A stretch of 64,000 nt of DNA, taken from Candidatus Thorarchaeota archaeon (lineage in GTDB: Archaea > Asgardarchaeota > Thorarchaeia > Thorarchaeales > Thorarchaeaceae). Under the pieces are notes generated by a model. It made no database searches. It worked only from the letters and a program-made list of their open reading frames with translations, and was not told the origin of the DNA. Positions 17,692 through 56,337 of the stretch are shown piece after piece (position 1 is the first letter of the stretch; each line of letters opens with the position of its first letter). The DNA is taken from assembly GCA_038893995.1 (NCBI GenBank), contig JAWAQK010000002.1, positions 45,367 to 109,366 on the forward strand. The letters run 5' to 3'. Both the position numbers and the translations under genes were made by a program.

Positions 17692-18795
17692 GTGGGCCCT
17701 ATTATGGAACGTGGTGCCTGTTTCAAGGTCTGTGTCCTGCTGCTCGTTGTGCTCATGACCTGTAAGCCCGTTACTGTAAGTGCCCAGGTTCTGGATCAAG
17801 TCGTGGTACTTTTTGATGCCTCCCACTCGCCTCAGTTTGCTCCTGATGATGACGAACAGGGTCTGGGCCTGATACTCAAGATGGTGAACTCTTCAACAAG
17901 GTACATGGTGCGTGTTCACAAGGGTTCCCCGCTCAACACGAGTATCCTTGATGACGTGGACATACTGATCGTGGCATCGCCAGACAAGTCCAATCCATTC
18001 TCCCGCTCCGAAATCTTAGCCATATCGGAGTCAATTGCAAACGGAACTTCTCTTCTTGTTCTCGGAGACCCCTGTATTGACCAGAAATCAAAATACTGGT
18101 CTACTGAGCGACTTCGCGACATGGGCGAGAATATAGCTCTGAACCAGTTTCTTGACTCATTGAACATCAGTGCTGTTCGCTTCAGTATCAACTATACTGT
18201 TGGGGGTGATGCCTGGGGCGATACGATGTTCGACTATGATCACGCCCTGAATAAGACATCTCCCTCTGTAATCCGACTTGGCTCTGCATCGTGGGCCTCC
18301 GCGCACCCAATATTCCGGAACATAAACGAGCTGGTACTTATGACATCGACTCTCAAACCGCTCAATAGTTCCACATTGATCGGTAGGAGCGAAAAGAGCT
18401 CGTTTGCACAGTTCAGAAAGGGGCCAAATACCTTTGCGAACTTGAGTTTTCCGAACATGAGTCTTGAGGAATTCAGAAATCGTCCTCTCTCATATTCAGC
18501 CATCAACGGTACTTTCCCATCATGGCTCAGTGCTTTTGAGTATGGATCGAGTAGGGTTGTGATCTCCGGATCGACGATAATGTTCTCCGGCCTATCTCTT
18601 GACCTTCCTAGTTCTGATGCGCGGAAAGATGACAGATGGTTCTATACTGCGGACAATTCCAAGCTGTTCCTGAACATATTGAGTTGGCTCTCTGAACGCC
18701 ACGTCAGTCCTCCCAGTGCAATCACTCAGGTCTTGATAGTTTCATCAGTCCTTCTTGCAGTAGGGGTACTTTACTACGTTGTTCGAAGAGAGTAA
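17692..18795 (+). CDS. Secreted, C-terminally anchored glycoprotein with GIFT/DUF4350-like alpha/beta domain
   Basis: N-terminal signal peptide; VLFDASH, DILIVASP, GTSLLVLGD, RVVISGS..MFS, DN.KLFLNILSWL; C-terminal TM helix followed by RRE; 10 NxS/T sequons. Confidence 0.7.
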   Translation: MGPIMERGACFKVCVLLLVVLMTCKPVTVSAQVLDQVVVLFDASHSPQFAPDDDEQGLGLILKMVNSSTRYMVRVHKGSPLNTSILDDVDILIVASPDKSNPFSRSEILAISESIANGTSLLVLGDPCIDQKSKYWSTERLRDMGENIALNQFLDSLNISAVRFSINYTVGGDAWGDTMFDYDHALNKTSPSVIRLGSASWASAHPIFRNINELVLMTSTLKPLNSSTLIGRSEKSSFAQFRKGPNTFANLSFPNMSLEEFRNRPLSYSAINGTFPSWLSAFEYGSSRVVISGSTIMFSGLSLDLPSSDARKDDRWFYTADNSKLFLNILSWLSERHVSPPSAITQVLIVSSVLLAVGVLYYVVRRE

Positions 18796-18864
18796 CATCA
18801 TCAAGCACAGCGAGTGAATGAGGTGTTTCGACGCGCTGGCCACTCTACTGACATAGAGATTGTT

Positions 18865-21681
18865 CTACCAGAAACCCCGTGTCCTGGCGTATTGCTCTTC
18901 TGCTGCAGCAATTGCCCTAAGTAACGAGACTCTGTCCATTCTGCTAGGCGACAATATCCTGGATGCCATAGTCGGCCCGATGCCCCTTCCAGCTAGGACC
19001 ATGACTGCCCTCTTGCCGTACTCAGCCACTAGCTGAGCAGTAAGATCCATCTGTCGTACTAGCCTATTCGACGAAACCCTGTTCCGACGACCATCATAGG
19101 TACTATCCTTCTGGTCCCCCCTCCGGATCTTGAATACAGATATCATCCTTGATAGGCAGGTCGGGCACGTCACGATTTCGTCCAGTGAGTAGACCTTACG
19201 AACTGCGCTCCAGCTGCAGTTTCGGCACTGGAGCCGGAGTTCTGTGGATAGAAGCCTTCGCTCGAGCAGGGCGAGGATCTCTTCTTCCTCCAGGGTTTCG
19301 CCAACCAGTTCAAACCTGGACCTCCCTTCGACTATCGACTGTGCAAGTGGGGACATTGACGCTGGAATCACGATTTGAAATTGTATTCTGCCATTCCTGC
19401 AGTCTTCGAGGAACTCAATCACGCGTTTCTCATCCGTTTTCTGAAAGAGGACCTCGTTGAGTGCCTCATCGAACACGGGCGTGTTTCTCAGCAATCTGAT
19501 AAGATTTCTTGCTACGTTCGAGCTAGCCTCCGGTTCTATGACGCCCATTCTCTTGGCAACTTGTGCAAATCTGGACAGAAACGCATCTGTATTCTTTAGA
19601 GCCAACCGCAGCAGTGTTCTTGTCTGTGCAGCTTCAAGCCCTTTGAGCACGCATTCAATCTCGGAAGGGTCAATGTGCTGAGAGGTAGAGAGTAGTATCC
19701 TGTATGGATCGCTCTCCATTCCTATGTCAATCCCATGTCTTGTGGACAGAAGAGCAGACAGCAGCAGGCCAAGTGTCTCATTGGCCCTTGTTCCCAGAGG
19801 CACATGAACAACGAGCCCCATACTTGTGCTCTCGATGACGACGCGCTTGACAGATGGAATCACGCCAAGTATATGCATGCTAGCGTCGATGCACTGTATC
19901 ACATACTCTGCTGCTTCCTTAGTCAGCCGATATCGTTTCTCTAGCCATTTGCAAGCCCTCTTCTTTGTCATGGTTGCGACGTGATTCCAAACGGAAGACA
20001 CTTCGACAGCCACCTCATAAGGAACTGGAATCATCTCTCCCGTCCATCGCGGAGGCGCAGTATCAGTACTGACTGCAGGTCTGCATAGTACCTCCTCATC
20101 TATGCTGACGACATCGTACGTCCTACCTGCAATCACAAGGCTCGTACCTGCCGCCACATTGGTCTTGACATACTCCTCATCGAGGACTCCTACAGTTCTC
20201 CTTGTCAGTATGTCCAATACTGGTACTTGTCTGACATCGGGTATTGTTCCCAGATGTTCGTAGTAGAACTTCCTTGTCCTCCTCGTGGCTGCAACACGGT
20301 CTCCAATAACTGAGATCAGAGATCTCCGCTTCATGAACTCTATGAGACGCTCGATGTGTGATCTGTTGAACATCCTGAACGGACATGTTTCCCTTGTCAT
20401 CTCAAGCAGCTCGGTCAAGCTCACACTCCCGGAATCCAAGACAGCACCACATATCTGATGGCAGAGGACATCCCACGATTCCATCGGTATCTCGACATGC
20501 TCGACCTTGTTCAGAATTGCTCTCCGCACAATTACACCTGACTCAGTCACATCATCGAGGTTCATTGTTGCGATGACAACACCCTCTGCAGCACCCCCTA
20601 CCCGATGAGATGCTCTCCCTGCCCTCTGCAATTCCCTTGATACATTACGTGGACTGCTATACTGTACCACGAGGTCCGCCTGGCCTATGTCTATTCCTAG
20701 CTCCAGACTGGAAGTAGCTATCATTGCTTTGCAAGAGCCATTCTTGAACTCGTCTTCTGCCTCAAGCCGTTCGGACTTCGAGAGAGAGCCATGATGGACT
20801 CTGAGCTTGAGTGACGGATCGATTACCCTCATCTTAAGACCTAGTAGTTCAGCAAACGATCGCGTGTTGGTGAATATCAATGTCGAACTGTGTGTGTTTA
20901 TCAGATCTAGGATCCTCTTCAGTCGCGCCACGTTGTATGGTGAGACCTTGATCTCCCGAGCAATCCTCATGTCTTCGTCATCTGGCACGGGCATCTCAAC
21001 CCGTAGAATCATCCGTCGTGATTCAAATCCTCCCCAGATGATTCTGACGTACTGATCCGTTCCGCCCAACCATCCAGCAACAGTCCTGGGGTTACCAACA
21101 GTGGCCGAGAGTCCTATGCGCTGAATTCGTGAACCGGCTATTCTCTCAAGTCTCTCCAGACCGAGACTGAGCTGTACACCTCTCTTGCTACCGGCCAGTT
21201 CGTGTACCTCATCAATCACGGCCGTTCGTACGTTTCTGATGTGCATCTGCATTCTCGGAGCAGGGATGATCGCCTGTAGTGTTTCGGGAGTGAGGATCAG
21301 CAGGTCTGGTGGATTCTCCAATTGCTTCTTGCGGAAGTGTTGTGATGTGTCTCCGTGACGTACACTCACACTCAGACCAACATGGGTACAGATTCTCTCG
21401 ATGCGCTCGAGCAGATCCCTGTTCAGCGCACGAAGTGGGGTTATGTATAGCAGCCTCACGCCGCCTGAAGAACGATCGTCAGTCTGTTCTAACATCTTAC
21501 TTAACAGTGGAAGCAGTGCTGCCTCCGTCTTTCCAGATCCCGTGGGAGCTACGATCAGGAAGTTATCTCTGGACCGAAGAATCTCGGGTATTGCTGCTAC
21601 CTGAATTGGAGTTGGTTCGACTATTCCTCTATCTGCTAGGACTTCTCTTATCCGATCATGCAACAGCTCAAACACATTCAT
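18865..21681 (-). CDS. lhr: Lhr-family SF2 ATP-dependent helicase
   Basis: APTGSGKT, YITPLRAL, DEVH, GLSAT, HHGSLS, SSLELGID, QRAGRA; C-terminal Zn ribbon. Confidence 0.92.
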   Translation of the reverse strand: MNVFELLHDRIREVLADRGIVEPTPIQVAAIPEILRSRDNFLIVAPTGSGKTEAALLPLLSKMLEQTDDRSSGGVRLLYITPLRALNRDLLERIERICTHVGLSVSVRHGDTSQHFRKKQLENPPDLLILTPETLQAIIPAPRMQMHIRNVRTAVIDEVHELAGSKRGVQLSLGLERLERIAGSRIQRIGLSATVGNPRTVAGWLGGTDQYVRIIWGGFESRRMILRVEMPVPDDEDMRIAREIKVSPYNVARLKRILDLINTHSSTLIFTNTRSFAELLGLKMRVIDPSLKLRVHHGSLSKSERLEAEDEFKNGSCKAMIATSSLELGIDIGQADLVVQYSSPRNVSRELQRAGRASHRVGGAAEGVVIATMNLDDVTESGVIVRRAILNKVEHVEIPMESWDVLCHQICGAVLDSGSVSLTELLEMTRETCPFRMFNRSHIERLIEFMKRRSLISVIGDRVAATRRTRKFYYEHLGTIPDVRQVPVLDILTRRTVGVLDEEYVKTNVAAGTSLVIAGRTYDVVSIDEEVLCRPAVSTDTAPPRWTGEMIPVPYEVAVEVSSVWNHVATMTKKRACKWLEKRYRLTKEAAEYVIQCIDASMHILGVIPSVKRVVIESTSMGLVVHVPLGTRANETLGLLLSALLSTRHGIDIGMESDPYRILLSTSQHIDPSEIECVLKGLEAAQTRTLLRLALKNTDAFLSRFAQVAKRMGVIEPEASSNVARNLIRLLRNTPVFDEALNEVLFQKTDEKRVIEFLEDCRNGRIQFQIVIPASMSPLAQSIVEGRSRFELVGETLEEEEILALLERRLLSTELRLQCRNCSWSAVRKVYSLDEIVTCPTCLSRMISVFKIRRGDQKDSTYDGRRNRVSSNRLVRQMDLTAQLVAEYGKRAVMVLAGRGIGPTMASRILSPSRMDRVSLLRAIAAAEEQYARTRGFW

Positions 21682-21916
21682 CGGCTAGCTTTCCTTTCTT
21701 GATGCGGCGCTGAAAGTCATTGATGACTATCCGTATGTCGGTCGATAGGGTGATATCCGCTTGTCTTGCAAGCTCTTGAAGCTTGTCCAATGCGCTCTCA
21801 CATAGAACATTCTCTGAAACTATCTCTTCGATTATCGTTCTCATCTCTCGAAGATACACTAGATATGGGGCACATGACTGGAATGACTCGGCAAGCAGTG
21901 TCCTGCATGAATCTAT
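21668..21916 (-). CDS. Small conserved hypothetical helical protein (start uncertain)
   Basis: Open frame between the OST4-like ORF and lhr, overlapping the lhr start; GGTGA RBS precedes an ATA at 21916, first in-frame ATG gives MRTIIEE. Confidence 0.5.
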   Translation of the reverse strand: MDSCRTLLAESFQSCAPYLVYLREMRTIIEEIVSENVLCESALDKLQELARQADITLSTDIRIVINDFQRRIKKGKLADECV

Positions 21917-21926
21917 ACGTTCACCA

Positions 21927-22037
21927 TCATTCTTCAGATTGTTCCTGCCCCCAAACGCTGTAGGCCAGAATGAACACCAAGGCGAACAATCCAAGCATCA
22001 ACATGACTATGTAGAGCACATTCTGAAGCGTCTGCAT
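21927..22037 (-). CDS. 36-aa single-pass membrane microprotein, OST4-like (not in ORF track)
   Basis: MQTLQNVLYIVMLMLGLFALVFILAYSVWGQEQSEE*; TATA-like TTTTAAG about 30 nt upstream; one uncharged TM segment. Confidence 0.6.
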   Translation of the reverse strand: MQTLQNVLYIVMLMLGLFALVFILAYSVWGQEQSEE

Positions 22038-22093
22038 TGGAATCTGGCGACTCTGCGTCTAGTGCACTTAAAACAGTTGCTACTGCCCGTTGC

Positions 22094-22342
22094 CTACTCA
22101 GATCTTTGCATCTCTGAGAATCTGTCGACAAATGTCCCGTAGACGTCAACCGGTTCAGTTAGAGAGGTCACCTTCTCGATCGTCATGTCAAGCCCGCACG
22201 ACCCACATCTGACGGTGGCAATGCCCTCCTCCTGATACACTTCAATCTTTATTGCAACCTCTCCGCAGTTAGGGCACGCGTACACGTCGGGAATTCGCTT
22301 CTGGGGTCGTCGAATCACCTTTTGCCTACGTCTTCTTCCCAT
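22094..22342 (-). CDS. elf1: Transcription elongation factor Elf1
   Basis: MGRRRR, CPNC...CGSC, EPVDVY..FVD. Confidence 0.92.
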   Translation of the reverse strand: MGRRRRQKVIRRPQKRIPDVYACPNCGEVAIKIEVYQEEGIATVRCGSCGLDMTIEKVTSLTEPVDVYGTFVDRFSEMQRSE

Positions 22343-22492
22343 TAGATCACCCTTGTCGTTTCTTCATCTGGATGAGCAAGGATTATGGAGAATAAAGCCA
22401 GCCAAGGGTCCCGGGGGCCTGTTTTAAGCATTTTGATGCCTCAGTGACCCAAACAAAAGACTTCTTATTGGGAAGGTGTCGCACTTGCCCAA

Positions 22493-22732
22493 ATGTCCTC
22501 CCTCAGTAAGAACCTAAGATGTATTCTCCGGATCTTGGAAGACAAAGGTCCCCTCACCACAGCAGAGATACTTCAGGCTGCTAACTCTGAAGCATACCGC
22601 GGTATATGCGATGAGTGTGTGGGAGGCGACTCGTTTGTTGCTGCTGCAAATCAGCTCGTGGAAATGGGACTTGTGACGAAACAGCTGCGAAAAGGTGGAT
22701 ACCACTGGCAAAGGACGGGTGTGAGCGCGTGA
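22493..22732 (+). CDS. Small winged-helix protein with CxxC insert
   Basis: ILRILEDKGPLTTAEI...CDEC...LVEMGLV...GGYHW; stop overlaps the desulfurase start (GTGA). Confidence 0.65.
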   Translation: MSSLSKNLRCILRILEDKGPLTTAEILQAANSEAYRGICDECVGGDSFVAAANQLVEMGLVTKQLRKGGYHWQRTGVSA

Positions 22733-23973
22733 CGGACTGGAAGAGAATCAGAGGGGACTTTCCCGTTCTCAGTAGACTGATTCGAGGAAAGCCCATAGTG
22801 TACCTTGACAGTGCATGTATGGCACTCAAGCCAAGACAGGTCATTCGTGCCATGAACGACTACTATGAACTCCAGTCTGCGTGTGGCGGTCGCAGTCTGC
22901 ATACACTTGGTAAGGAGGTTTCCGACGCTGTTCATGTAGCACGAGAGAGTATGTGCAGATTCATCAATGCATCCGACAGTCGCGAGTGCATATGGACGAA
23001 GAATGCCACCGAATCCTTGAATATCGTTGCACATTGCGTGGAACTTCCAAAGGGGTCGAAGATCGTCACAACATCACTGGAACACCATAGTGGCTCGTTG
23101 CCATTTGTTGAACGCGCTCGGCATGACGGACTAAAACTGGAAGTGGTAAAGTCCAGGGATGACGGGACGTTTGACATTGAGGATTGGAAACGTGCAATCG
23201 ACTCAGACACTCGACTTGTATCTGTTGTGCATTCATCGAACGTCACTGGAACAGTCGCCCCCCTACGAGAGATTGTTGAGATCGCACACGACAGGAACGC
23301 ACTTGTTGTTTCTGATGACGCGCAATACGCTCCACACCATCCCATGGACGTTCGTTCCTCCGACGTAGACTTCTCTGCAATCTCGATCCATAAGATGTGC
23401 GGACCTACCGGGATGGGCCTTCTCTACGGCAAGCTCGAGCATCTTGAGTCGATGAAGATGTTTGTCACAGGTGGTGACACGGTCAGCGATGTACGTTTCG
23501 AGGACGGTGAGATCCTGCCTACTTACCTCGGTCCTCCCGCCAAGTTTGAGGCGGGGCTTCAAAACTACGCTGGAATAATAGGATCGGGAGCAGCCGTCGA
23601 CTATCTAACTTCTGTCGGTATGCATAATGTGGAGCACAGAGAGTATGCTCTCCTTCGTGCAACACTCAGACAATTGAAGGACATCAAGGGAATCAGAATC
23701 ATTGGTCCCGACGATCCTGACCTTAGATCTGGCGTGGTTACATTTACGGTGGACGAGATTAGATCCGCACACGATGTTGCACTCTTTCTGAGTGAAGAGC
23801 ATAACATCATGTGTAGATCCGGTTGGCACTGTACCGGCCCCTATCATTACCAGGTCGGAATACCCCCCGTCTATGGTACCGTCCGTGCAAGCTTCTACTT
23901 GTATAACAATATGGATGATGTTCGCACGTTCCTTCACGCGCTCTGCGACCTTCTGGAATCTAGCATGGAATAG
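22729..23973 (+). CDS. sufS: Cysteine desulfurase, SufS/group II family
   Basis: YLDSA, NATESLN, EHHS, HSSNVTG, DDAQ, SIHKMCGPTG, FEAG, RSGWHC; GTG start at 22729. Confidence 0.9.
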   Translation: MTDWKRIRGDFPVLSRLIRGKPIVYLDSACMALKPRQVIRAMNDYYELQSACGGRSLHTLGKEVSDAVHVARESMCRFINASDSRECIWTKNATESLNIVAHCVELPKGSKIVTTSLEHHSGSLPFVERARHDGLKLEVVKSRDDGTFDIEDWKRAIDSDTRLVSVVHSSNVTGTVAPLREIVEIAHDRNALVVSDDAQYAPHHPMDVRSSDVDFSAISIHKMCGPTGMGLLYGKLEHLESMKMFVTGGDTVSDVRFEDGEILPTYLGPPAKFEAGLQNYAGIIGSGAAVDYLTSVGMHNVEHREYALLRATLRQLKDIKGIRIIGPDDPDLRSGVVTFTVDEIRSAHDVALFLSEEHNIMCRSGWHCTGPYHYQVGIPPVYGTVRASFYLYNNMDDVRTFLHALCDLLESSME

Positions 23974-24059
23974 CCATTGTCAAACTGTTTCTTTGGACAC
24001 CTGCATCCGGATTCCTTTCGTTAGACGCACGGCACGGTCTCACGTTGCGGTCTGACCTC

Positions 24060-25817
24060 TCAACCCAACTTACTGAGGTCCTCTTCGACCTCCTGTCTCA
24101 AGCGCCTTATCTCCTCAAACAGACTGGATTCCTGGACCTCCCTGGCTGACACCTCGAAAGAGTCTCTGAATTTCCTCACAGTACCACGGACTGTAATTCT
24201 GGCCCCTCTTATCTCTTCTAAGAGTCCGGTTCCCCCTTTCCCCTTCTCGCTGATTTCAATCGCACTGGCCCGTGCCAACTCCTCTGCAACAGAGTCGAAC
24301 AGAGTGACCCTCACTGTGTTTCCAGATCCATCATCCAGCGTGATCTTGTATAGGAGAATTGGCACCGGCTTGTGCACCTTTCCGTGTGCACTACACGCGT
24401 ATCCTTCCTCAGATTCATCCACCTTCTTTCTACATCCCGGGTGATCACAGGCCAAGTAGAATATGTCCGACTCCTGTACTGCCACTACTATTCCCTCAAC
24501 CTCAATGTATTTCTTCTCGAATGAATCGTCTATGTCGCACATTCTGACCCTCTTAGGTCTAGGTTGCAAGTGTTCCTCGAGAGATGAGATCTCCACATCT
24601 GTGATCACGATGTCCTCTGGGTTTCTCTCCAGTTCTCCCTGTCTTCCCACATGAAGTTCCGGTTCTCCTCGAATCCCCTCCTTCACATAACAATGCCTGA
24701 TCCTTACCAGATCTCCTTCTCTGAGTTGAGAAGCCAGCTCCGCCTTCTCGTTCCAGAATGTGACTCTGACGGCTCCTGAATTGTCCGCGACCACGACGTT
24801 TCTGAGCCTGCCACTTCTCCCCTCCTTCTCGAATCTCCTTTCCTCCATCACACTTATGACCTTGGCCTCTATGTCCACATCGGTCATGCTGGTTTCGAGT
24901 CTCGAAATGGGTGTGAGTCCAACAGATCTAGTCTGCGTTTCGAAACTGGCCTGGTCAACATCGATCTTGTAATCCAGGTTTCTTTCAATCACTGATGATC
25001 TGCCGGCATGAACCTCTATCTCGCCATTAAGTCCCTGCTTGGTGTAAGCCCCCGTGAGTCTTACTACCTCCCCCACATTCACATCCTTCATCTTCTCTGC
25101 ATGGGCGTCCCAAAACACTATTCTGGCCGATCCTGTTTCATCAGCGCCTCTGATACTCATGATCGTCCCTTTCGTGCCATCTCGACTGCGCGTAAATGTC
25201 TTGAGTCCCTGTGTTTGGACAACTTTGAATACTAGTGTGATGTCGCTTGCTGGAACCTGAAGACTACCGATCTTGACCGTTTCCTGTTTCACATTGACTA
25301 CGGACTTGAATACATCCGCTTCTTCTCCGTCCATGACCCTCATCTCCCCTGTGTGGCCGAGGCTCAACTCAAGGGCATCTCTTAGTCCCCTCCTTGCAGA
25401 GGCTCCTCGTATCTGGATCACATCACCGACAGAGATCTCGCCTTCTTCTACGACCTTCGTCTTGTCATCCCACAGGGCAACTCGTATCTGTCCTGACTCA
25501 TCTGCTACGACGATACTGGCTACCTTGCCTTCTCCACTACTCTTAGAGAAGGTCCTCACTGGGTCAATCCTTACTATCATTGCTGTAAGCACAACATTCC
25601 TCATGTTCTCATTCAGATCTGATATGCGCATCCTTGAAGACCTGGGCTGCTGTAGGTCGACACCAAGTTCTCTCGCGACGATCATGGCCGCAGACTCGTC
25701 ATTGATCAGGTCCATTCCAATATGCTGACGCTTCTTTCGGATGAGGTCCAGGATCTGCTTTCGGTCGTACTCCGTGTTTCTCAATACTATCTCAATCATT
25801 TCTTCTAGTGTTAGCAA
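24060..25817 (-). CDS. rpa: Replication protein A, large subunit (multiple OB folds plus Zn finger)
   Basis: N-terminal helical domain (MIVARELGV); three OB folds (ADESG/ADETG/ADNSG..FW); C-terminal OB fold with CDHPGC...CSAH and LDDGSG. Confidence 0.9.
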   Translation of the reverse strand: MLTLEEMIEIVLRNTEYDRKQILDLIRKKRQHIGMDLINDESAAMIVARELGVDLQQPRSSRMRISDLNENMRNVVLTAMIVRIDPVRTFSKSSGEGKVASIVVADESGQIRVALWDDKTKVVEEGEISVGDVIQIRGASARRGLRDALELSLGHTGEMRVMDGEEADVFKSVVNVKQETVKIGSLQVPASDITLVFKVVQTQGLKTFTRSRDGTKGTIMSIRGADETGSARIVFWDAHAEKMKDVNVGEVVRLTGAYTKQGLNGEIEVHAGRSSVIERNLDYKIDVDQASFETQTRSVGLTPISRLETSMTDVDIEAKVISVMEERRFEKEGRSGRLRNVVVADNSGAVRVTFWNEKAELASQLREGDLVRIRHCYVKEGIRGEPELHVGRQGELERNPEDIVITDVEISSLEEHLQPRPKRVRMCDIDDSFEKKYIEVEGIVVAVQESDIFYLACDHPGCRKKVDESEEGYACSAHGKVHKPVPILLYKITLDDGSGNTVRVTLFDSVAEELARASAIEISEKGKGGTGLLEEIRGARITVRGTVRKFRDSFEVSAREVQESSLFEEIRRLRQEVEEDLSKLG

Positions 25818-25949
25818 TGGAATTCCCTTCGATTCCAGTGTGTTTCACCTGAAATTACCCGCTGGCCACCTTTAAACGTCTTCATTGATGGATCTCTTCA
25901 CCGTCATGATGATAAGCGACCAGATCATCCTCTGCGTTCGCGAACTGAC

Positions 25950-28900
25950 TTGAGTGGTCAAGATTACTCTCTGCCAAAACATAGCCCAAGCTACGCAGAG
26001 TACTTCAGGACGATAAGCGACGAGATTGGAAGGATATACGAAATTGCCTCTCGTGCCAGGGCAAAGGGCATTGATCCCTCAGAGAAAGTCGAGATCCCGC
26101 CAGCACACGATCTTGCTGCCCGAGTCGAGGCCACTCTTGATGGCCCTGTAGGTATTGCAAGGAGAATCCGCGAGCTGCAAAGATCAATGAGCCGCGAAGA
26201 GGTGGCTTTCCAATTAGCACGAGAGGTTGTAGAGGGCCGATTTGGTGAAATAGGCAGCGACGAAGTGACCAATCCAGCCCTGAGAGAGGAGAAGGCCGCT
26301 GACAAGGCGGTCCGTGTTGCTCTCTCCATTCTGACTGAAAGCATAACAGCCGCGCCCCTGGAGGGAATTGCAAAGGTCAAGATCCATGGTTCGAATGAAG
26401 ACCGGTACTTGGCCCTCTACTTGGCTGGTCCAATCAGGGCCGCTGGTGGTACCGAGGCAGCGGTCACAGTACTGGTCGCAGACTACGTTCGACAGGTCCT
26501 GGGGTTGCCTCCACTAAGACCTACAGAGAAAGAGGTAGAACGTGCAGTTGAGGAAGTCGAGCTTTATGCTAGAAACGTACATCTCCAGTATCCCGTGAAT
26601 TCTGACCTGATACGGTTTGCTGCAAGGCACCTCCCCATCATGCTCACAGGCGAACCTACTGAAGAGATAGAAGTGTCCGGGACACGAGATCTAGAACGAA
26701 TTGAAACAAACAGGGTTCGGGGAGGCGCGGTACTGGTTCTGAATGATGGAGTGGTGGGTAGGGCTGCAAAGTTGGCCAAGATCGTGAATCGCCTGAACAT
26801 TCCCGGCTGGTCCTGGTTAGACGAGATTGTCGCTAGGACATCAAAGACAAAGAGCATTGAAACCGATGACGAACGTCAGAAGCTACTCGCTCCGAAACAA
26901 GACTATCTTGTCGATGTGATTGCTGGTCGCCCTGTGTTTTCACACCCATCCAAGATTGGAGGTTTTCGTGTCAGATATGGTCGATCTCGCAATACCGGTC
27001 TTGCTGCAGTGGGGCTCCATCCCGCGACCATGGTCGTTCTCAGTGAGTTTCTCGCATCCGGGACGCATATCCGAACAGAGAGACCCGGTAAGGGTTCCAT
27101 TGTGGCGCCGGTCGACACAATCGAGGGCCCAATCGTCCTACTGGTTGATGGTTCCGTCAGGCAGCTGAATGATGTGAATGAAGCACGCGCCTGCATGGGA
27201 TCTATCAAGAAAGTGCTTTACCTTGGCGATATACTGATCGCACTGGGAGAGTTTCTCGAGAACAATCATCCCCTTGTACCTTCTGCATACTGCGAGGAAT
27301 GGTGGTCTCACGACCTAGAGCAGAAGACACAGGCCCTGTCTCGAAATCAGCTCGCGAGCTTGCTTCGAGATTCTGGAGTTTCTCCAGAAGAGTATGAGTC
27401 TTTCGTGCATAATCCACTGACCCACTACCCGACTCCGCAACAGGCAGTCCTGATGTCCAAACTACTTGATATTCCATTGCACCCGAGGTATGTATATCGT
27501 TGGAATGCGTTGAGCCCGGTAGAGTTTGATGAATTCAGAACCTGGCTTCTGACATCGTACGGGGAAATAGTGGAAGACGGTCGCAGACTGATAAAAGCGC
27601 CTGACAATTCACGATTCAAGGCCATGTTGGAGCGTATTGGTGCGCCTCACAGGTACCTGCAGGGCTCAAGAGAAATTGTACTCCTTGATGATCCGCTCAC
27701 TATACTAGAACAGCTCGGCAACAGAGAGCATGAACCACAGGGCTCAACCACGCTCGACGCAGTCAACTCGGTTTCGAACGTCAGAGTCGGTGACAGACTC
27801 GGGTTTCACATAGGTGCGAGAATGGGCCGGCCTGAGAAGGCAGAAGCAAGAAGAATGAAACCCCCCGTTCAAGTGCTCTTCCCAGTAGGCCGAGATTCCT
27901 CAACCGAGAGAAACTTGGAGAGGGTGGCACGAAATCAGGAGTCCTTACCCCCACTGGACACCTATATGAGTCCCATGGAAACCGGGTATGGAATACCCAG
28001 AAACGTCGAAACTGATTCCGGTAGAGGTGTACTGGTAGAGCTGGTTGTGAGAGTGTGTCCTAACTGCGGAAACGAGACTTTCGAGCCCATGTGTCCCGTG
28101 TGTCGAGTACGTACGCAGGTGAAGCGATGGTGTTCGCAGGAGGGATGCGGTCTCTATGTTGACGAGACTAGGGGTCTCTGTCCACGCAGCCACAATGTGA
28201 ATCTTATCAGATCAACGAAGGTCCGCAGGGTCGATATCGATGCATATCTCGAGCGCGTCAAACAGGAGATTTCGGAGAGTGACGCGTTCGATGTCAGAGG
28301 GGTACTTGGCCTAACCAGTGAACTCAAGATTCCCGAGTATCTCGGCAAGGGCATTTTGCGCGCAAAACATGGCGTGTATTGCTATCGAGATGGTACTGCA
28401 AGATTCGATGCGACTGATGCACCTTTGACTCATTTCACACCTAAAGAGGTGGGGGCGTCAGTCGGTCGCCTGCGCAGCCTCGGATACTCAGTTGACTATC
28501 AAGGGAACCCGTTGGTGTCCGACGACCAGATACTCGAGTTGAAGGTTCAGGATATTGTCGTGTCAGAGGCATGCGTTGAGTATCTATTCCGCGTTGGTCA
28601 GTTTGTTGATGATTGTTTGGAAAAAATCTACGGGCTGGATCGATACTACCGTTTTGCCAGTCTTGAGGACCTGATTGGGCATCTGGTCATCGGTCTTGCA
28701 CCGCACACATCCGCGGGGATTGTCGGACGCATCATTGGCTTCACTGATGCAAGTGTCTGCTACGCCCACCCATACTGGCATGCTGCAAAACGCCGCAACT
28801 GTGATGGTGATGAGGACTCAGTGATGCTCGTTATGGATGCTCTTCTCAACTTCTCCAAGTCCTTCCTACCCGCCGGAAGGGGTGGCTTCATGGATGCTCC

Positions 28901-29540
28901 TCTGGTCCTCTCGGTGATACTGAACCCACAGGAGGTCGATGATGAAAGTCATAACATGGATGTCTGCTTCCGATACCCATCTCGATTCTACGATGCAACT
29001 CGTCAGATGGTCAGCCCAAAGACCTTTGAACGTGTAGTGGACACTGTCAAGGCTCGTCTGGGGACAGAGGCTCAGTATGAGGGTTTCGGATTCACGCACG
29101 GGACGTCTTCAATTCATATGGGTCCTAGAGTGTCCCGGTACAAATTGTTGAACACCATGGCGGACAAGTTGAAGGCTCAGCTCGCCCTGGCCAAAACCAT
29201 AGCAGCTGTTGATCCTCGCGATGTCGCTGAGAGGGTCTTGTCCCATCACTTCATTCGTGACATTCGTGGCAATCTCAGGGCCTTTACCACACAGAGGTTT
29301 CACTGTTTCAGATGTCGAAGGATTTTTCGTAGAGTCCCGTTGTCCGGTCGCTGCACATGCGGTGCCCCCCTTTCACTGACAGTGCGGAAGAAAAACATCT
29401 CCAAGTATCTTGAGATTGCAGAAACCACGATTGCAGAGCATGGTCTGGGCCCCTACCTATTAGATCGTCTGCGTTTGATGAAGTCATCACTGGACTCGAT
29501 GTTTCTCTCTGAGCAGACCAGTCTGACAGATTTCTACTGA
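25950..29540 (+). CDS. polC: DNA polymerase D large subunit DP2
   Basis: AGPIRAAGGT, YGRSRNTG, RMGRPEKA, LAPHTSAG, HAAKRRNCDGDED; C-terminal PIP box QTSLTDFY; no intein. Confidence 0.98.
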   Translation: MSGQDYSLPKHSPSYAEYFRTISDEIGRIYEIASRARAKGIDPSEKVEIPPAHDLAARVEATLDGPVGIARRIRELQRSMSREEVAFQLAREVVEGRFGEIGSDEVTNPALREEKAADKAVRVALSILTESITAAPLEGIAKVKIHGSNEDRYLALYLAGPIRAAGGTEAAVTVLVADYVRQVLGLPPLRPTEKEVERAVEEVELYARNVHLQYPVNSDLIRFAARHLPIMLTGEPTEEIEVSGTRDLERIETNRVRGGAVLVLNDGVVGRAAKLAKIVNRLNIPGWSWLDEIVARTSKTKSIETDDERQKLLAPKQDYLVDVIAGRPVFSHPSKIGGFRVRYGRSRNTGLAAVGLHPATMVVLSEFLASGTHIRTERPGKGSIVAPVDTIEGPIVLLVDGSVRQLNDVNEARACMGSIKKVLYLGDILIALGEFLENNHPLVPSAYCEEWWSHDLEQKTQALSRNQLASLLRDSGVSPEEYESFVHNPLTHYPTPQQAVLMSKLLDIPLHPRYVYRWNALSPVEFDEFRTWLLTSYGEIVEDGRRLIKAPDNSRFKAMLERIGAPHRYLQGSREIVLLDDPLTILEQLGNREHEPQGSTTLDAVNSVSNVRVGDRLGFHIGARMGRPEKAEARRMKPPVQVLFPVGRDSSTERNLERVARNQESLPPLDTYMSPMETGYGIPRNVETDSGRGVLVELVVRVCPNCGNETFEPMCPVCRVRTQVKRWCSQEGCGLYVDETRGLCPRSHNVNLIRSTKVRRVDIDAYLERVKQEISESDAFDVRGVLGLTSELKIPEYLGKGILRAKHGVYCYRDGTARFDATDAPLTHFTPKEVGASVGRLRSLGYSVDYQGNPLVSDDQILELKVQDIVVSEACVEYLFRVGQFVDDCLEKIYGLDRYYRFASLEDLIGHLVIGLAPHTSAGIVGRIIGFTDASVCYAHPYWHAAKRRNCDGDEDSVMLVMDALLNFSKSFLPAGRGGFMDAPLVLSVILNPQEVDDESHNMDVCFRYPSRFYDATRQMVSPKTFERVVDTVKARLGTEAQYEGFGFTHGTSSIHMGPRVSRYKLLNTMADKLKAQLALAKTIAAVDPRDVAERVLSHHFIRDIRGNLRAFTTQRFHCFRCRRIFRRVPLSGRCTCGAPLSLTVRKKNISKYLEIAETTIAEHGLGPYLLDRLRLMKSSLDSMFLSEQTSLTDFY

Positions 29541-30665: not shown

Positions 30666-31988
30666 TTGAAGAGCACCAGAGAGGTCTACGATCACATCTT
30701 CAGCCTTATCGAGCAGCACGAAAAGTGGATGACGAAGACAATCAACTTGATCGCGTCTGAGAATGTTTCATCGCCAGCCGTAAGGTCTGCAATAGTATGT
30801 GATTTTCGTGACAGGTATGCTGAGGGCTGGCCTGGAGAGAGAGTCTACGCGGGCTGTGTCTACATTGACCAAGTGGAAACAATGTGTATCGACCTTGCAA
30901 AGGAACTCTTCAGGGCAGAATTTGCGGATGTAAGACCGGTGTCCGGCGTGGTAGCCAATCTTGTGATGTACACTGCAATGATGCAGCCGCTGGACAGGAT
31001 GATGGCACTGTCGATCGCTGATGGTGGACACATATCTCATGCAAGAGCGAACCTGGGCGGGACTGCTGGAGCAGTCAGAGGACACAAGGTACGGAACTGG
31101 ATCTTTGACGAGTCTGAGTTCAACATAGATGTCGATGCTAGTATCAAGGAGATTCGGAGGCTTGAGGCCGAGGGAGATCACATAAGCTTCCTCCTGTTTG
31201 GTGGAAGTGTGTTCCCATTTCCTCACCCGGTCAAGGAGTTCAGGGACGTCGCGGATGAGTTCAGTATGACCATAGGCTATGATTCCGCGCACGTTTCAGG
31301 TCTTATTGCAGCCGGCCGGTTTCAAGATCCATTAAGGGAGGGCGCCGACATCATGACTGCCTCGACCCATAAGACATTGCCTGGTCCCCAGCACGGCATT
31401 GTCTTGTCCAAGGCCAAGTATGCCGACGCAATCAAGACCGCTTCGTTTCCAGGGTTGTTGAGCAACCACCACCTCCATAACGTGGCGGGGTTGGCAATTG
31501 CGCTCACAGAGATGCTGGAGTTTGGAAAGGCCTATGCGGATCAAATCATAAGGAATGCAAAGGCTCTTGCTCAGTCGTTGCATAACAGAGGCTGGAATGT
31601 GGTTGCTGAGCACAAGGGCTTCACTCAGTCACATGTGGTCCTATGTGATGTTTCCGAGACTCCACTGAAGAACGGTCGTGCTGTTGAAGAACGGCTGGAA
31701 CGAGCTGGCATCATCATCAATCGTAATCTGCTACCGTGGGACAAACGAATGGGCCGTGACTACAAGACTCCCGGCGGAATTCGACTTGGGACCAGCGAAG
31801 TCACACGGCTTGGGATGAAGGAATCAGAGATGGACGAAATTGCCGATTTCATTCACAGGGTCGTCATGAAGGACGAGGATGTCTTGAAGATAAGCGATGA
31901 GGTCAGGGAGTTTCGTAGTGAGTATCAGCGTGTCCACTATGCATTCGAGAATGAAACGCCTGCATACGCACATCTCAGATTCAGGTAG
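30666..31988 (+). CDS. glyA: Serine hydroxymethyltransferase (archaeal type)
   Basis: LIASEN, YAEG, GGHISH, DSAH, STHKTLPGPQHG, GIRLGT. Confidence 0.97.
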   Translation: MKSTREVYDHIFSLIEQHEKWMTKTINLIASENVSSPAVRSAIVCDFRDRYAEGWPGERVYAGCVYIDQVETMCIDLAKELFRAEFADVRPVSGVVANLVMYTAMMQPLDRMMALSIADGGHISHARANLGGTAGAVRGHKVRNWIFDESEFNIDVDASIKEIRRLEAEGDHISFLLFGGSVFPFPHPVKEFRDVADEFSMTIGYDSAHVSGLIAAGRFQDPLREGADIMTASTHKTLPGPQHGIVLSKAKYADAIKTASFPGLLSNHHLHNVAGLAIALTEMLEFGKAYADQIIRNAKALAQSLHNRGWNVVAEHKGFTQSHVVLCDVSETPLKNGRAVEERLERAGIIINRNLLPWDKRMGRDYKTPGGIRLGTSEVTRLGMKESEMDEIADFIHRVVMKDEDVLKISDEVREFRSEYQRVHYAFENETPAYAHLRFR

Positions 31989-32008
31989 TTACAGGGAGGT
32001 GGACACTC

Positions 32009-32481: not shown

Positions 32482-32664
32482 GTGCCCAAGACAACAAAGA
32501 AGCGCAGTGGGAAGAAGGGATCCGGACCGATGCCATCCGGTGGGGCGGGTCTCATAAGATTCTTCGAAGACGAAACCCCTGGTGTCAAGGTCGGTCCCGT
32601 CGTGGTGGTCGTACTAGCCGCCATGCTCATTGTTGCTACGGTACTTGCGCATGTGCTGACTTGA
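32482..32664 (+). CDS. sec61b: Preprotein translocase subunit Sec61beta
   Basis: GAGLIRFFEDE..GVKVGP followed by one TM helix. Confidence 0.92.
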   Translation: MPKTTKKRSGKKGSGPMPSGGAGLIRFFEDETPGVKVGPVVVVVLAAMLIVATVLAHVLT

Positions 32665-37421: not shown

Positions 37422-37835
37422 CTAGAGCGACTTGATGTAATCGGCGTACTCCGTGTCGTTCATGAGCTTCTTCAAATCTGGATCCAGCGACGAGGGTTTC
37501 ATCTTGAACAACCATCCCGCACCATAAGGATCTTCGTTGACGATCTCGGGCGATTTCTCAAGGTTCTTGTTGACCTCTATCACTGTTCCAGAGATAGGTG
37601 AGAAGACATCTGAAGAGGCCTTCATGGATTCGACCAGGCCGCATGGGGCGCCTGCCTTCAGTTCTGTACCCACTTCACTTACCTCCACGAAAGTTATCTC
37701 GTGGAGCGCATTCTGTGCGTAGTCTGTAATTCCGACTATGACCACATCACCCTCGACCCGTGCCCATTCGTGGTCTTTCGTGTAGTATAGCCCGGGTACG
37801 ACCCTTTTCCCATCAGTCATTGAATACACCACCAA
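37422..37835 (-). CDS. gcvH: Glycine cleavage system H protein
   Basis: YTKDHEW, GITDYAQ, VESMKA (lipoyl Lys), NEDPYG.GW; ATG at 37820 is the likely start. Confidence 0.96.
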   Translation of the reverse strand: MVVYSMTDGKRVVPGLYYTKDHEWARVEGDVVIVGITDYAQNALHEITFVEVSEVGTELKAGAPCGLVESMKASSDVFSPISGTVIEVNKNLEKSPEIVNEDPYGAGWLFKMKPSSLDPDLKKLMNDTEYADYIKSL

Positions 37836-37874
37836 CTTCCCGCATTGTTCGTGCTTAAATGAATTCCTTCTCGA

Positions 37875-39014: not shown

Positions 39015-39093
39015 TCATAGTCACCTTTATGATGGTTGTTCAATCATAGAACCGCAGCTGTGCCTCAAAACAGCGACTGACGAGGCATGTCAT

Positions 39094-40305
39094 TTGGTAC
39101 TGTATAGGACAGTCACGATAAGGAAGCTCAGCTGTGGCCATGGACATGGCCCCCGTGTGATGGGCATCATGAATCTTTCGCCAGAGTCGTTCTATAAGGG
39201 TTCTGTATACTCCGACTCAGAGTCTATAGAAACAGCAGTCAGACGCATGGAGACGGAAGGCGCTGACATCATAGATGTTGGTGCCGCCTCTTCTGCTCCA
39301 GTCAACATCTATGCCACCTCCCCGATTTCCGGGGAACTGGAGGCAAGTAGAATTGAAGAAGCATTCCCCCGAATTAGGCAGCTGACGGAACTTCCAATAT
39401 CTATTGATACCACATCTTCCCGGGTTGCCAGGATCGCACTCGACCTCGGTGCAGACATGGTGAACGATGTGTCTGGACTCAGGGATGACCCAGAGATGGC
39501 ATTACTTATTGCAGACAGAGGTGTTCCTGTGGTGATCATGTCACGCTGCTCACCGCCATGTCATAGTCTTAATCAGGCACTGGAGGCGCTTTGTGAAAGC
39601 ATTCGAATCGCAGGAGACGCAGGCATACACGACGATCGCATCATCGTTGACCCGGGTATCGGCTTCGGAAAGCCTGCGGCGGTAGACCTCGACCTCGTGA
39701 AGTCTTTGGGCTCCTTCAAGATGCTTGGATATCCTCTCCTCGTAGGATTATCGAGAAAGGCATTTCTCGGTAGCATTGCCTGTTCATCGAGTCCAGATGA
39801 ACGTCTCACTGAAACCATTGCAGCAACTGCCATCTCTGTGGCCTATGGTGCTGACATAGTCAGGTCACACGATGTTGCAGAAGCAAGAAAGGCAGTAAGA
39901 GTTGGTGCAGCACTGGCAACACATTCTCACCTCACTTCGGGAAGTGTCGAGCTTGTAGATGCGCTCGACGAACAAGAGGCATCCGTCCTGTTGAAGAGGA
40001 TTGGTGTGTCTCCCGAGGTGGTGCCGGCGCTGTCAAAAAAGTGCTCCACACTGAATGTCCTGGTATCTGGTGTGACTCCTTCTGCAGGTGTCGTGATGAA
40101 GCAGGAGATGCTGGCCGTAGGGGGGGACGCTGCCTATCACCATGGAACCATCGATCATTCAGTGGATTGCACAGATGTCCTTGTGATGGGTAATCGCCTT
40201 CAACTCAGCAAGCTGGCGAAGAGGCTTCTGAAGATGACGTACTTCGGGCTGGACCGGATTGGTCGCGAGATTGCGGATGTTCTTGATGTCCACATCCAAA
40301 AGTGA
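39094..40305 (+). CDS. folP: Dihydropteroate synthase with C-terminal accessory domain
   Basis: VMGIMNLSPESF, IDVGA, SIDT, NDVSG, DPGIGFGK, GLSRK, RSHDV. Confidence 0.92.
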   Translation: MVLYRTVTIRKLSCGHGHGPRVMGIMNLSPESFYKGSVYSDSESIETAVRRMETEGADIIDVGAASSAPVNIYATSPISGELEASRIEEAFPRIRQLTELPISIDTTSSRVARIALDLGADMVNDVSGLRDDPEMALLIADRGVPVVIMSRCSPPCHSLNQALEALCESIRIAGDAGIHDDRIIVDPGIGFGKPAAVDLDLVKSLGSFKMLGYPLLVGLSRKAFLGSIACSSSPDERLTETIAATAISVAYGADIVRSHDVAEARKAVRVGAALATHSHLTSGSVELVDALDEQEASVLLKRIGVSPEVVPALSKKCSTLNVLVSGVTPSAGVVMKQEMLAVGGDAAYHHGTIDHSVDCTDVLVMGNRLQLSKLAKRLLKMTYFGLDRIGREIADVLDVHIQK

Positions 40306-40317
40306 GGTGACCTCCTG

Positions 40318-41016
40318 ATGAGGTGGTCCGAGTGGGAACCAACATATCGTGCCATTGCGAGGCGCCTTTCGCTTGACGTCTCTCTTGACTTCAAGGCTAC
40401 TGAGATGCTGACTCAGATCCTCGCAGACCAGAGGCCAAGACGGGAATTTGAACATCTCAAACATATCATGACCGACAGAGATGTCGTCATATGTGGTGCT
40501 GGTCCCTCGCTTGACGACCATATTGAAACATTGCGGGCCAAGTCTGATCTCGAAAACTACACGATTGTGGCCGCAGATGGAGCTTACAGAGGCCTCCTTT
40601 CCCATGGTGTGAGGTGTGACCTGATCGTCACCGACTTGGACGGAATTGATATTCTGCATCCACCTGAGTCACTTGTCATCGTTCATGCACACGGCGACAA
40701 CATGCCTCTTCTGGAAAGATTTGTTTCCCAATTGGGGTTTGTCCTGGGTAGCACACAGGTGAAGCCCACTCCTCGAGTACACCTTTGGGGAGGCTTCACA
40801 GATGGAGACCGCGCCTGTCACATCGTCGCACACTACCGTCCCCGACGAATCATACTTGCAGGAATGGACTTTGGAGTAACCGTTGGCCGTTGGTCCAAAC
40901 CTGAGTTTGATCGGCCTCATCCTGCAAGCCGACGAAAGCAGATCAAGCTCGAGATCGCGAAGCAGTTGGTTCAAAGGGTTCTTTCTACCAGTAACGTAGC
41001 ATTCACCTTTCTCTGA
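40318..41016 (+). CDS. mptE: 6-hydroxymethyl-7,8-dihydropterin pyrophosphokinase (MptE/DUF115)
   Basis: GAGPSL, AADGA, VTDLDG, HAHGDN, GGFTDGDRA, GMDFG. Confidence 0.9.
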   Translation: MRWSEWEPTYRAIARRLSLDVSLDFKATEMLTQILADQRPRREFEHLKHIMTDRDVVICGAGPSLDDHIETLRAKSDLENYTIVAADGAYRGLLSHGVRCDLIVTDLDGIDILHPPESLVIVHAHGDNMPLLERFVSQLGFVLGSTQVKPTPRVHLWGGFTDGDRACHIVAHYRPRRIILAGMDFGVTVGRWSKPEFDRPHPASRRKQIKLEIAKQLVQRVLSTSNVAFTFL

Positions 41017-41064: not shown

Positions 41065-41481
41065 TCAACCATAGGCCGTCTTGAGGCTCATGAGGTACAT
41101 CATTAGGACCACGGTGATACCGAGCATTAGGATTGCGATGAGCATGTACCGTGTAGCTCGGCCTGGTTGGAATACAAGTCTTGACGCATGATATAGCAAA
41201 CCAAGGCCTAGCGATCCAAAGAATACAAGGACCGCCACAACAAATCCCTCAAGTCCAAGCTGGAAGTCCGGCGTGGGGTATACTACCACCGGTCCACTCG
41301 ATCCACTGACGACCGCTGGTGGAGTCTTCACCAATGCAAAGATGTTTCCTCCAACTACAAACACGTACAGAACGAATATGAACCCAAAGATGACCATGTC
41401 TGGAGGTCGCGATACAGTCCCCAGTTTGGGTCGTTTCAGATTCAGCCTTGGTCTTACTATGAATCGTGGCCACCATGGCAT
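41065..41481 (-). CDS. OSTC/DC2-like (OST3/OST6 family) three-TM membrane protein
   Basis: PRLNLKRPK, TM1 ending GG.IF....PP, Q...EG, G.LG, C-terminal M.LK; 138 aa, no thioredoxin domain. Confidence 0.75.
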   Translation of the reverse strand: MPWWPRFIVRPRLNLKRPKLGTVSRPPDMVIFGFIFVLYVFVVGGNIFALVKTPPAVVSGSSGPVVVYPTPDFQLGLEGFVVAVLVFFGSLGLGLLYHASRLVFQPGRATRYMLIAILMLGITVVLMMYLMSLKTAYG

Positions 41482-47755: not shown

Positions 47756-47782
47756 AATGCAAGCTGATGGTGACTAGTCACA

Positions 47783-49043: not shown

Positions 49044-49078
49044 CTTGCCGATCTTCTAGACCCGTGATTCATTTTTCT

Positions 49079-50644: not shown

Positions 50645-50657
50645 CCTGTAGACCTCC

Positions 50658-52346: not shown

Positions 52347-52430
52347 CTCAAGTCCTCCGCTTGGTCGTACCGTGGACGATGACCTGGGCTACAACATCCC
52401 GCTTAAAGCCATTGCTACGTACACAGGCGT

Positions 52431-52475
52431 ACGACCCCTTCTCTGGTAGGCCGGGCCGAATGTGGAAGGGGTCGT
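52431..52475. repeat. Inverted repeat (hairpin) downstream of the fumarase beta gene
   Basis: ACGACCCCTTC/GAAGGGGTCGT (11 bp perfect). Confidence 0.7.
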
Positions 52476-52511
52476 TCTAGTCCTTGCTCTCTGAAGTAAG
52501 GGATGTGCTAC

Positions 52512-54012: not shown

Positions 54013-54103
54013 AAGTCACACTCCTTGTTTCTGGGTTGCATCCACCTAAGCAAGGCAGGTCCGAGAAGGAACTAATCTATATTGCTATCGTGCGAAAATA
54101 GTC

Positions 54104-55358: not shown

Positions 55359-55364
55359 ATCATT

Positions 55365-55832: not shown

Positions 55833-56013
55833 AGTGTATTCACCGCAGGGGACATCTCGTAATACACCACGATACGGGGTAATTAAGCATTGTCAGTTTC
55901 GCAATTATTTCCCCAATCATCTCAACGTACTGGGATCTCGTCACCAGAAACCTGATTGAGTTGACCTCGTAGAGTGAAGTAATCACGAAACCGGTGCCAG
56001 TACAATGAGGAAG

Positions 56014-56337
56014 TCACAACGTGACGAACCCGATGAGCAGAGTCCATACAAGTACCCATAACAGAAGGTAGGACGCCAATGAGTCCACGATGAGCTTCTG
56101 TCGTCCCCCTATCCTTGATGGATCGACCTCGAGAAGGTATACAATTGCATAGAGTGAGATTATGTAGATCAAGATACCAAACACGATACCTCTTATGCCC
56201 CGAAACGCGTCACCTGCCAGAGCACACAGTACTCCACTCAGTAGCGCAAAGACCATCTTGACATAGAAACTCTGGTCTTGAGGACTATTCGCCCATCTAC
56301 CAAACATGCGCTTGAAGACGGCTCTGATTGGCCCCAT
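56014..56337 (-). CDS. EMC6/Rab5ip-like three-TM membrane protein
   Basis: ALLSG..C...G...GI.G (TM1-2) and Y...WVLVWTLL (TM3); 107 aa. Confidence 0.7.
   Translation of the reverse strand: MGPIRAVFKRMFGRWANSPQDQSFYVKMVFALLSGVLCALAGDAFRGIRGIVFGILIYIISLYAIVYLLEVDPSRIGGRQKLIVDSLASYLLLWVLVWTLLIGFVTL

Follow-up and report, generated by a model that had tools for sequence, protein, structure and literature searches.

A 64,000-nucleotide stretch of a Candidatus Thorarchaeota genome (hereafter the window; contig JAWAQK010000002.1, positions 45,367 to 109,366, or G000:C2:45367-109366 in our numbering) probably encodes a small oligosaccharyltransferase (OST) that resembles subcomplex II of the eukaryotic enzyme. 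It would consist of the catalytic subunit STT3, a one-helix protein of 36 amino acids (aa), here called the 36-mer, as a candidate counterpart of Ost4, and a membrane protein related to DC2/OSTC. An earlier reading of the same DNA, made from the letters alone (the original prediction), had proposed an OST-A-like translocon composed of these three proteins together with a Wbp1-like GIFT protein, Sec61beta, an EMC6-like protein and the signal recognition particle (SRP) RNA. All seven features, i.e. six open reading frames (ORFs) and the RNA, are present where it had placed them. The genome (2.33 Mb in 82 contigs) is 91 % complete, and Candidatus Thorarchaeota is the label found on the database relatives of the window proteins. 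Class-wide counts given below refer to 87 genomes of the class Thorarchaeia, phylum-wide counts to 301 sampled Asgard genomes.

Three putative subunits of an oligosaccharyltransferase

The window protein scored 174 bits (cut-off 24.5, E = 9e-51) with the Pfam model of the N-terminal transmembrane (TM) domain of STT3 (PF02516), and a profile search of the whole genome found this single copy (176.7 bits). Among solved structures, the closest relatives are human STT3A (E = 1e-79), human STT3B (4e-76) and yeast Stt3 (3e-73), whereas archaeal AglB from Pyrococcus reached only 2e-4 with the same query. The eukaryote-type character originally ascribed to the protein is thus borne out in comparison with solved AglB, and judged from its sequence the protein is a homologue of eukaryotic STT3. 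WWDYG and DK-type motifs are defining marks of the STT3/AglB/PglB family. In the window protein we read WWDYG at residues 541-545, D609xxK612xxxM616 and, in addition, SVAE at residues 375-378. About 13 TM segments predicted from hydropathy are followed by the WWDYG domain and a C-terminal extension of about 250 aa; residues ~660-912 gave no Pfam match. This extension (window positions 34554-35313) is conserved across the class and lies outside the part that can be aligned to eukaryotic STT3. Altogether, STT3 was detected in 82 of the 87 class genomes.

The 138-aa protein matched Pfam OST3_OST6 (PF04756) with 34.1 bits against a cut-off of 27 (E = 2.7e-8). The match, at profile positions 182-290 of 294, comprises the TM part alone; the protein has three hydrophobic segments and lacks a thioredoxin domain. 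Its top match in the PDB was human OSTC (6S7O_H, E = 4.9e-4, residues 10-132 on 14-135 of 149), and a profile built from 25 orthologues retrieved OSTC chains exclusively (E = 1.2e-6, residues 12-133 on 15-139 of 149). Neither the single sequence nor the profile found an Ost3, Ost6, MAGT1 or TUSC3 chain in the PDB at E <= 10. Based on these comparisons, the protein is homologous to OSTC. Its size, the three TM segments, the missing thioredoxin domain and OSTC as nearest solved relative uphold the specifically DC2/OSTC-like assignment of the original prediction, and this label is more precise than the 'Ost3/6' used for the Asgard protein in the literature, where our search found no paper combining Asgard, DC2 and oligosaccharyltransferase. 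The family occurs in 83 of the 87 class genomes and in 249 of the 301 Asgard genomes, mostly as open frames of 139-230 aa. In nearly all class genomes that carry both genes on one contig, it lies about 4 kb from STT3. By analogy with the eukaryotic proteins, it may bind STT3 or SecY and act co-translationally. A second OST3_OST6 match in the genome, on contig C3, was rejected as an ordinary cytoplasmic CxxC thioredoxin.

The 36-mer is encoded by a true gene and not by a chance frame. A match in an open frame of 36-59 aa is present in 86 of the 87 class genomes, and the codon positions differ in the order third > first > second (0.61, 0.36 and 0.13 differences per site), a substitution pattern of the coding type. 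Glycine 16, leucine 20, tyrosine 26 and glycine 30 are invariant in the alignment (G-x3-L-x5-Y-x3-G), and the tail is acidic. With one hydrophobic segment at residues 7-25, the protein has the length and the single TM helix of Ost4. A conserved box with the consensus CAGCAAyGrTTATAAG, resembling a transcription factor B recognition element (BRE) and TATA box, precedes the start by 36 nucleotides (nt) in 24 of 27 loci and by 27-38 nt in the other three. Other Asgard families contain weaker relatives (34-41 aa) that preserve the G-x9-Y core. The family profile detects 84-92 of the 301 Asgard genomes, nearly all of them Thorarchaeia; this scarcity beyond the class is a sensitivity limit of the profile and not absence.

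For the complex model, residues 1-640 of STT3 were combined with the DC2-like protein and the 36-mer, using a separate alignment for each chain and the 36-mer as the sole scored partner. The 36-mer docked on STT3 with an interaction prediction score from aligned errors (ipSAE) of 0.76, compared to 0.00 for the best of three controls, namely two unrelated natural 36-residue proteins on STT3 and the 36-mer on an unrelated 677-residue protein. The score mark is reached by 58 of 80 solved complexes and by 2 of 110 mismatched pairs. The runs share at least 92 % of their contacts, with a predicted local distance difference test (pLDDT) value of the partner of at least 71. Modelled contacts on STT3 involve residues 27-54 (TM1), 154-167, 450-461 (end of TM12) and 486-505 (TM13). 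In the model, the outer end of TM1 is close to residues 4-12 of the 36-mer and its cytoplasmic end to residues 23-32, which implies an N-out/C-in orientation. Yeast Ost4 is described as 'nestled between TMH1 and TMH13 of Stt3' (review, PMC7226087), and both the predicted interface and the orientation agree with this site. The contacts listed for the model include none that joins the 36-mer to the DC2-like chain, which is no evidence against their touching. The AlphaFold-type check suggested with the original prediction returned a predicted 36-mer interface at the Ost4 site, with the DC2-like chain included unscored. In short, the model treats the 36-mer like Ost4, and the binding itself is a prediction.

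In the proposed system, STT3 would be the enzyme that transfers a lipid-linked glycan to N-x-S/T sites at the outer face of the cytoplasmic membrane. The 36-mer would sit N-out/C-in in the groove of TM1, TM12 and TM13 and stabilise STT3 as Ost4 does, and the DC2-like protein would act as the second membrane partner of STT3, like DC2 or the TM part of eukaryotic Ost3/6, perhaps forming a bridge to SecYE-beta. This coupling to SecY and the idea of a 'proto-ER' (ER, endoplasmic reticulum), both part of the original prediction, are suggested by analogy.

Gene neighbourhood and alternative explanations

The order Elf1 > 36-mer > Lhr was recovered in 30 of 30 class loci, and in 11 of these tblastn detected a small helical ORF that separates the 36-mer from Lhr. 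A second Asgard family likewise shows the succession 36-mer > helical ORF > Lhr; its helical ORF is homologous (E = 2e-6), has 86 aa and occupies the same position. The helical ORF overlaps the start codon of Lhr and has no Pfam match; no ATG or GTG lies between the stop codon of the 36-mer and its conserved part, and the one start codon upstream, a TTG, overlaps with the 36-mer. In further lineages, RPA or a metallophosphoesterase lies next to the 36-mer. The wider surroundings in the window contain a metallophosphoesterase, a cysteine-desulfurase-type enzyme, RPA and the large subunit of PolD as well as the GIFT gene. Window positions 16369-29540 form a replication/repair setting (metallophosphoesterase, Lhr, RPA, PolD DP2) that encloses the 36-mer and the GIFT gene, and other Asgard families also have parts of this setting around the 36-mer.

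Between STT3 and the DC2-like gene lie the genes for dihydropteroate synthase, an MptE-like kinase and the glycine-cleavage proteins H and T. Together with SHMT, these make up a one-carbon/folate set (30666-31988 and 37422-41016) that is interleaved with the STT3 and DC2-like genes. The 36-mer lies about 16 kb from the DC2-like gene in most class genomes, and in one complete class genome the 36-mer block is 158 kb away from the STT3/DC2 block. An operon of OST genes was rejected, as the genes are dispersed among unrelated ones; their shared location is a class-wide conserved synteny. The original prediction had itself called the genes dispersed and their co-location weak evidence, and the interleaved unrelated genes agree with this. 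It had also named phyletic co-occurrence as a check. Within the class, the 36-mer (86/87), the DC2-like gene (83/87), STT3 (82/87) and the GIFT gene (80/87) are all nearly universal, so that their co-occurrence says nothing.

We regard it as unlikely that the 36-mer is no OST subunit but a generic one-helix microprotein tied to the Elf1/helical-ORF/Lhr neighbourhood or to another membrane complex. In length, G-x9-Y spacing and polar tail, it would then resemble Ost4 by convergence, and the docking would be the model's remembered Ost4 site. The main argument for this reading is the neighbourhood, with the invariant order in the class, the partial recurrence in another Asgard family and RPA or the metallophosphoesterase adjoining in other lineages: the conserved neighbours of the 36-mer (Elf1, helical ORF, Lhr, metallophosphoesterase, RPA and PolD) include no glycosylation gene. 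This weighs against an Ost4 role, as do the sequence searches. The 36-mer itself gave no hit to any Pfam family. Pfam Ost4 (PF10215) had no match at E <= 10 in the six frames of the genome and matched 0 of 27 members of the 36-mer family, and no PDB chain was found by the 36-mer sequence (phmmer) or by the family profile. An exhaustive HMMER profile search of 1.84 billion proteins returned only 23 clusters of 29-54 aa, and 17 of 17 newly retrieved cluster representatives carried the motif of the query family. A word-indexed profile search yielded 191 relatives, with no Pfam domain in any of the 120 listed, and the best score in a protein atlas was an uninformative 0.80. By any sequence method used, there is no link between the 36-mer and Ost4. 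The docking result also has to be read with care: the complex model used our own alignments, which makes its calibration only rough, and the pass may reflect the model's memory, because STT3-Ost4 complexes have already been solved. On the other hand, all controls scored 0.00 in contrast to 0.76 for the 36-mer, the modelled interface and orientation fit the Ost4 site, a conserved promoter-like box of its own precedes the gene, and it is not obvious what a TM helix would do beside a cytoplasmic helicase. Furthermore, Ost4 homologues are reported for most Asgard classes (PMC10307638), and no other candidate was found in the genome. What remains of the 'OST4-like' designation is a conserved one-helix protein predicted to dock at the Ost4 site; the sequence relationship that the name suggests was not detected.

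Still less probable is that STT3 works alone, like AglB, and that the DC2-like protein, the GIFT protein and the 36-mer are independent proteins retained from an ancestor shared with eukaryotes that form no complex with it. This would fit the dispersal of the genes without an operon, with glycine-cleavage, folate, helicase and translation genes in between, and the established form of OST in archaea and bacteria is a single subunit (PMC7226087). It would also fit the subunits that were looked for and not detected, which count against a eukaryote-like complex: ribophorin I was not found in the 91%-complete genome and gave only six weak matches among the 87 class genomes, and DAD1 and OST48_N gave only spurious weak matches in the genome, the sole one for OST48_N (12.6 bits) lying elsewhere than the GIFT protein. 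However, the DC2-like gene keeps its distance of about 4 kb from STT3 in nearly all class genomes with both on one contig, even where the 36-mer block is 158 kb off. OSTC-family proteins have no known function outside OST, and the complex model supports docking of the 36-mer. The three-protein complex of STT3, 36-mer and DC2-like protein is the reading that we favour over both.

The GIFT-domain protein and the secretion components

The GIFT protein has a signal-peptide-like hydrophobic N-terminus, a GIFT domain at about residues 37-340, a C-terminal TM segment at 346-364 and ten N-x-S/T sequons. Its AlphaFold2 (AF2) model (mean pLDDT 83.7) was compared with known structures using Foldseek and VIA-align, and IFT52 and OST48/Wbp1 were the top matches. 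VIA-align gave a Z-score of 22.5 for IFT52 (213 residues), 20.4 for human OST48 (232 residues, 3.0 Å) and 18.0-18.4 for yeast Wbp1, with GATase1-like proteins clearly lower (Z 15). The fold is thus shared with OST48/Wbp1 (6S7T_G, 6EZN_G) and with the N-terminal domain of IFT52 (5FMR/5FMS), and the type I topology is OST48-like; in contrast to OST48, the protein is shorter (367 aa compared to a chain of 410 residues) and its sequence is GldG-type. Pfam assigned it to ABC_transp_aux (GldG-type, PF09822, E = 9e-10) with a weak IFT52_GIFT match, and OST48_N (PF03345) did not match at E <= 1. The protein belongs to the GldG/IFT52/OST48 fold class and is a glycoprotein on the outside of the cell, anchored in the membrane. 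The description as Wbp1-like is fair for its fold and topology. The gene is present in 80 of the 87 class genomes; where both share a contig, its distance from the 36-mer is nearly always about 4 kb. One complete class genome contains only a 122-aa frame matching the last 86 residues (G058:C1:1517305-1517550), where the gene is possibly degraded.

We lean slightly towards a role of the GIFT protein outside glycosylation, as a GldG-like accessory or surface glycoprotein, and against its being the counterpart of Wbp1/OST48. The Pfam result points in this direction, as do some homologues named 'Gldg family protein' at NCBI, the fold score that is slightly higher for IFT52 than for OST48, and the restriction of WBP1 homologues to Heimdallarchaeia reported by Eme et al. 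(PMC10307638). An OST48-related role is in better agreement with the absence of an adjoining ABC (ATP-binding cassette) transporter gene and with the topology of OST48, i.e. a signal-peptide-like N-terminus, an external GIFT domain, a single C-terminal TM segment and a short tail. It is also favoured by the larger number of residues aligned to OST48 than to IFT52 and by the near-universality of the family in the class.

Sec61beta matched its Pfam family (PF03911) with 54 bits against a cut-off of 27 (E = 1.8e-14); it is tail-anchored with a TM segment at residues 40-58, and its gene adjoins those of ribosomal protein L44e and aIF2-alpha. The SRP RNA was missed at the Rfam gathering threshold and recovered by an E-value search: with E = 2.4e-18, the match covers positions 1-317 of 317 of Archaea_SRP, and its 81.9 bits fall short of the gathering score (96.5). 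A gene for an RNase H/RVT_3-type protein (3012-3521, minus strand) directly adjoins it, and aIF5B (3913-5715) follows on the opposite side. To our knowledge, both Sec61beta and the SRP RNA are universal in archaea. The EMC6-like protein scored 27.8 bits with Pfam EMC6 (PF07019, cut-off 23.3) and 18.9 bits, under the cut-off, with EMC6_arch (PF19094); its gene neighbours encode an AsnC regulator, a KaiC-like ATPase and NFACT. Each of nine diverse archaeal proteomes queried contained EMC6-like proteins, as partners of YidC and not of OST (PMC8675477), and archaeal EMC6-like proteins have been modelled as YidC partners (PMC8675477; 10.64898/2026.10.28.762692). The window protein is expected to be such a YidC partner rather than a partner of OST. 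These three components, which the original prediction had counted as parts of an OST-A-like translocon, are general archaeal secretion and insertion housekeeping and have no bearing on such an assembly.

Outside the window, a 69-aa ORF with two TM segments gave a sub-threshold match to Ost5/TMEM258 (21.9 bits, cut-off 27.4, E = 2e-4, positions 10-70 of 73) and may be the Ost5 homologue reported for Asgard archaea by Eme et al. The coordinates of all features are collected in Table 1. Near the end of the window, positions 63798-63909 on the plus strand matched the Rfam tRNA model with 61 bits. With 112 nt for a model of 71 positions, this tRNA, which was not called by ARAGORN, probably contains an intron.

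Table 1. Features of the putative OST system and its surroundings (window positions unless a contig is named).
Feature	Position	Strand	Length and basis
Wbp1-like GIFT protein	17692-18795	+	367 aa; Pfam ABC_transp_aux, fold match
36-mer, candidate Ost4 counterpart	21927-22037	-	36 aa, single TM segment; class-wide conservation, complex model
BRE/TATA-like box of the 36-mer	22064-22079	-	GCAACTGTTTTAAG here; CAGCAAyGrTTATAAG in relatives
Sec61beta (archaeal SecG)	32482-32664	+	60 aa; Pfam Sec61_beta
STT3	34554-37292	-	912 aa; Pfam STT3
DC2/OSTC-like protein	41065-41481	-	138 aa; Pfam OST3_OST6
EMC6-like membrane protein	56014-56337	-	107 aa; Pfam EMC6
Archaeal SRP (7S) RNA	3540-3851	-	Rfam RF01857
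Elf1	22094-22342	-	neighbour of the 36-mer
Lhr helicase	18865-21681	-	neighbour of the 36-mer
Small helical ORF	21668-21910	-	~60-80 aa; between the 36-mer and Lhr
Ost5-like ORF	G000:C45:12342-12518 (locus L131, 1495-1704)	-	69 aa; sub-threshold Pfam match

Comparison with known systems

The closest known system is subcomplex II of eukaryotic OST, which consists of STT3A, OST4 and DC2 in human OST-A (6S7O, 8B6L) and of Stt3, Ost4 and Ost3/6 in yeast (6EZN, 6C26). The window shares with it an STT3 clearly homologous, by sequence comparison, to STT3A/Stt3, a three-TM OSTC-family protein of the size of DC2 (138 compared to 149 aa) and a 36-aa one-helix protein that is predicted to occupy the TM1/TM13 groove with its N-terminus outside. 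In contrast to subcomplex II, the 36-mer has no detectable sequence similarity to Ost4. Compared to eukaryotic OST as a whole, ribophorin I, DAD1 and OST48_N had no credible matches in the genome (KCP2 and Swp1 were not searched for), the site is the cytoplasmic membrane, STT3 carries the extra C-terminal extension, and the complex is a predicted one. With AglB (Archaeoglobus fulgidus 3WAK, Pyrococcus 2ZAG), the window STT3 has the superfamily, the WWDYG catalytic domain and the cytoplasmic membrane in common; it differs in being far nearer to eukaryotic STT3, and AglB is described as acting without partner subunits.

Among Asgard archaea, homologues of Ost4 and Ost5 are reported for most classes and WBP1 for Heimdallarchaeia only (Eme et al., 2023, PMC10307638), so that the original prediction, which knew of no reported archaeal OST4, is wrong on this point. 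A Lokiarchaeal Sec61/OST/TRAP translocon has been assembled from AF2 models superimposed on human 8B6L (Carilo et al., 2024, PMC11417166), and, as cited in Eme et al. (2023), the OST/translocon set of Asgard eukaryotic signature proteins also appears in Zaremba-Niedzwiedzka (2017). The gene families of this published set (STT3, Ost3/6-family, Ost4, Ost5 and Sec61 subunits) are the same as those described here. Unlike in the published set, where the small TM protein is called 'Ost3/6', it is of DC2 type in our analysis; and the Lokiarchaeon of Carilo et al. has OST1, which was not found in this genome. The system is therefore real but largely known, as the toolkit has already been published for Asgard archaea. 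The additions made here are modest: a Thorarchaeal gene as candidate for the role of Ost4, together with a docking prediction that was run with controls, the assignment of the Asgard 'Ost3/6' as DC2-type and a GIFT-fold candidate for comparison with OST48.

Should STT3, the 36-mer and the DC2-like protein indeed assemble, the catalytic core STT3-Ost4-DC2/Ost3 would have been multi-subunit in Asgard archaea before the ER arose, an idea already put forward by Eme et al. (2023, PMC10307638) and Carilo et al. (2024, PMC11417166), and a core of N-glycosylation could be rebuilt from a small set of named genes. A more specific proposal, which is possible but rather doubtful, is that Thorarchaeia have a minimal multi-subunit OST made of subcomplex-II-type parts only, i.e. 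STT3, an Ost4 counterpart that has diverged beyond recognition by sequence searches and a DC2-type (not Ost3/6-type) partner, maybe with an Ost5-like protein and a GIFT-fold forerunner of OST48. In this case, DC2, the form that docks on the translocon, would be ancestral, and Ost3/6 with its thioredoxin domain would be a fusion that arose later in eukaryotes.

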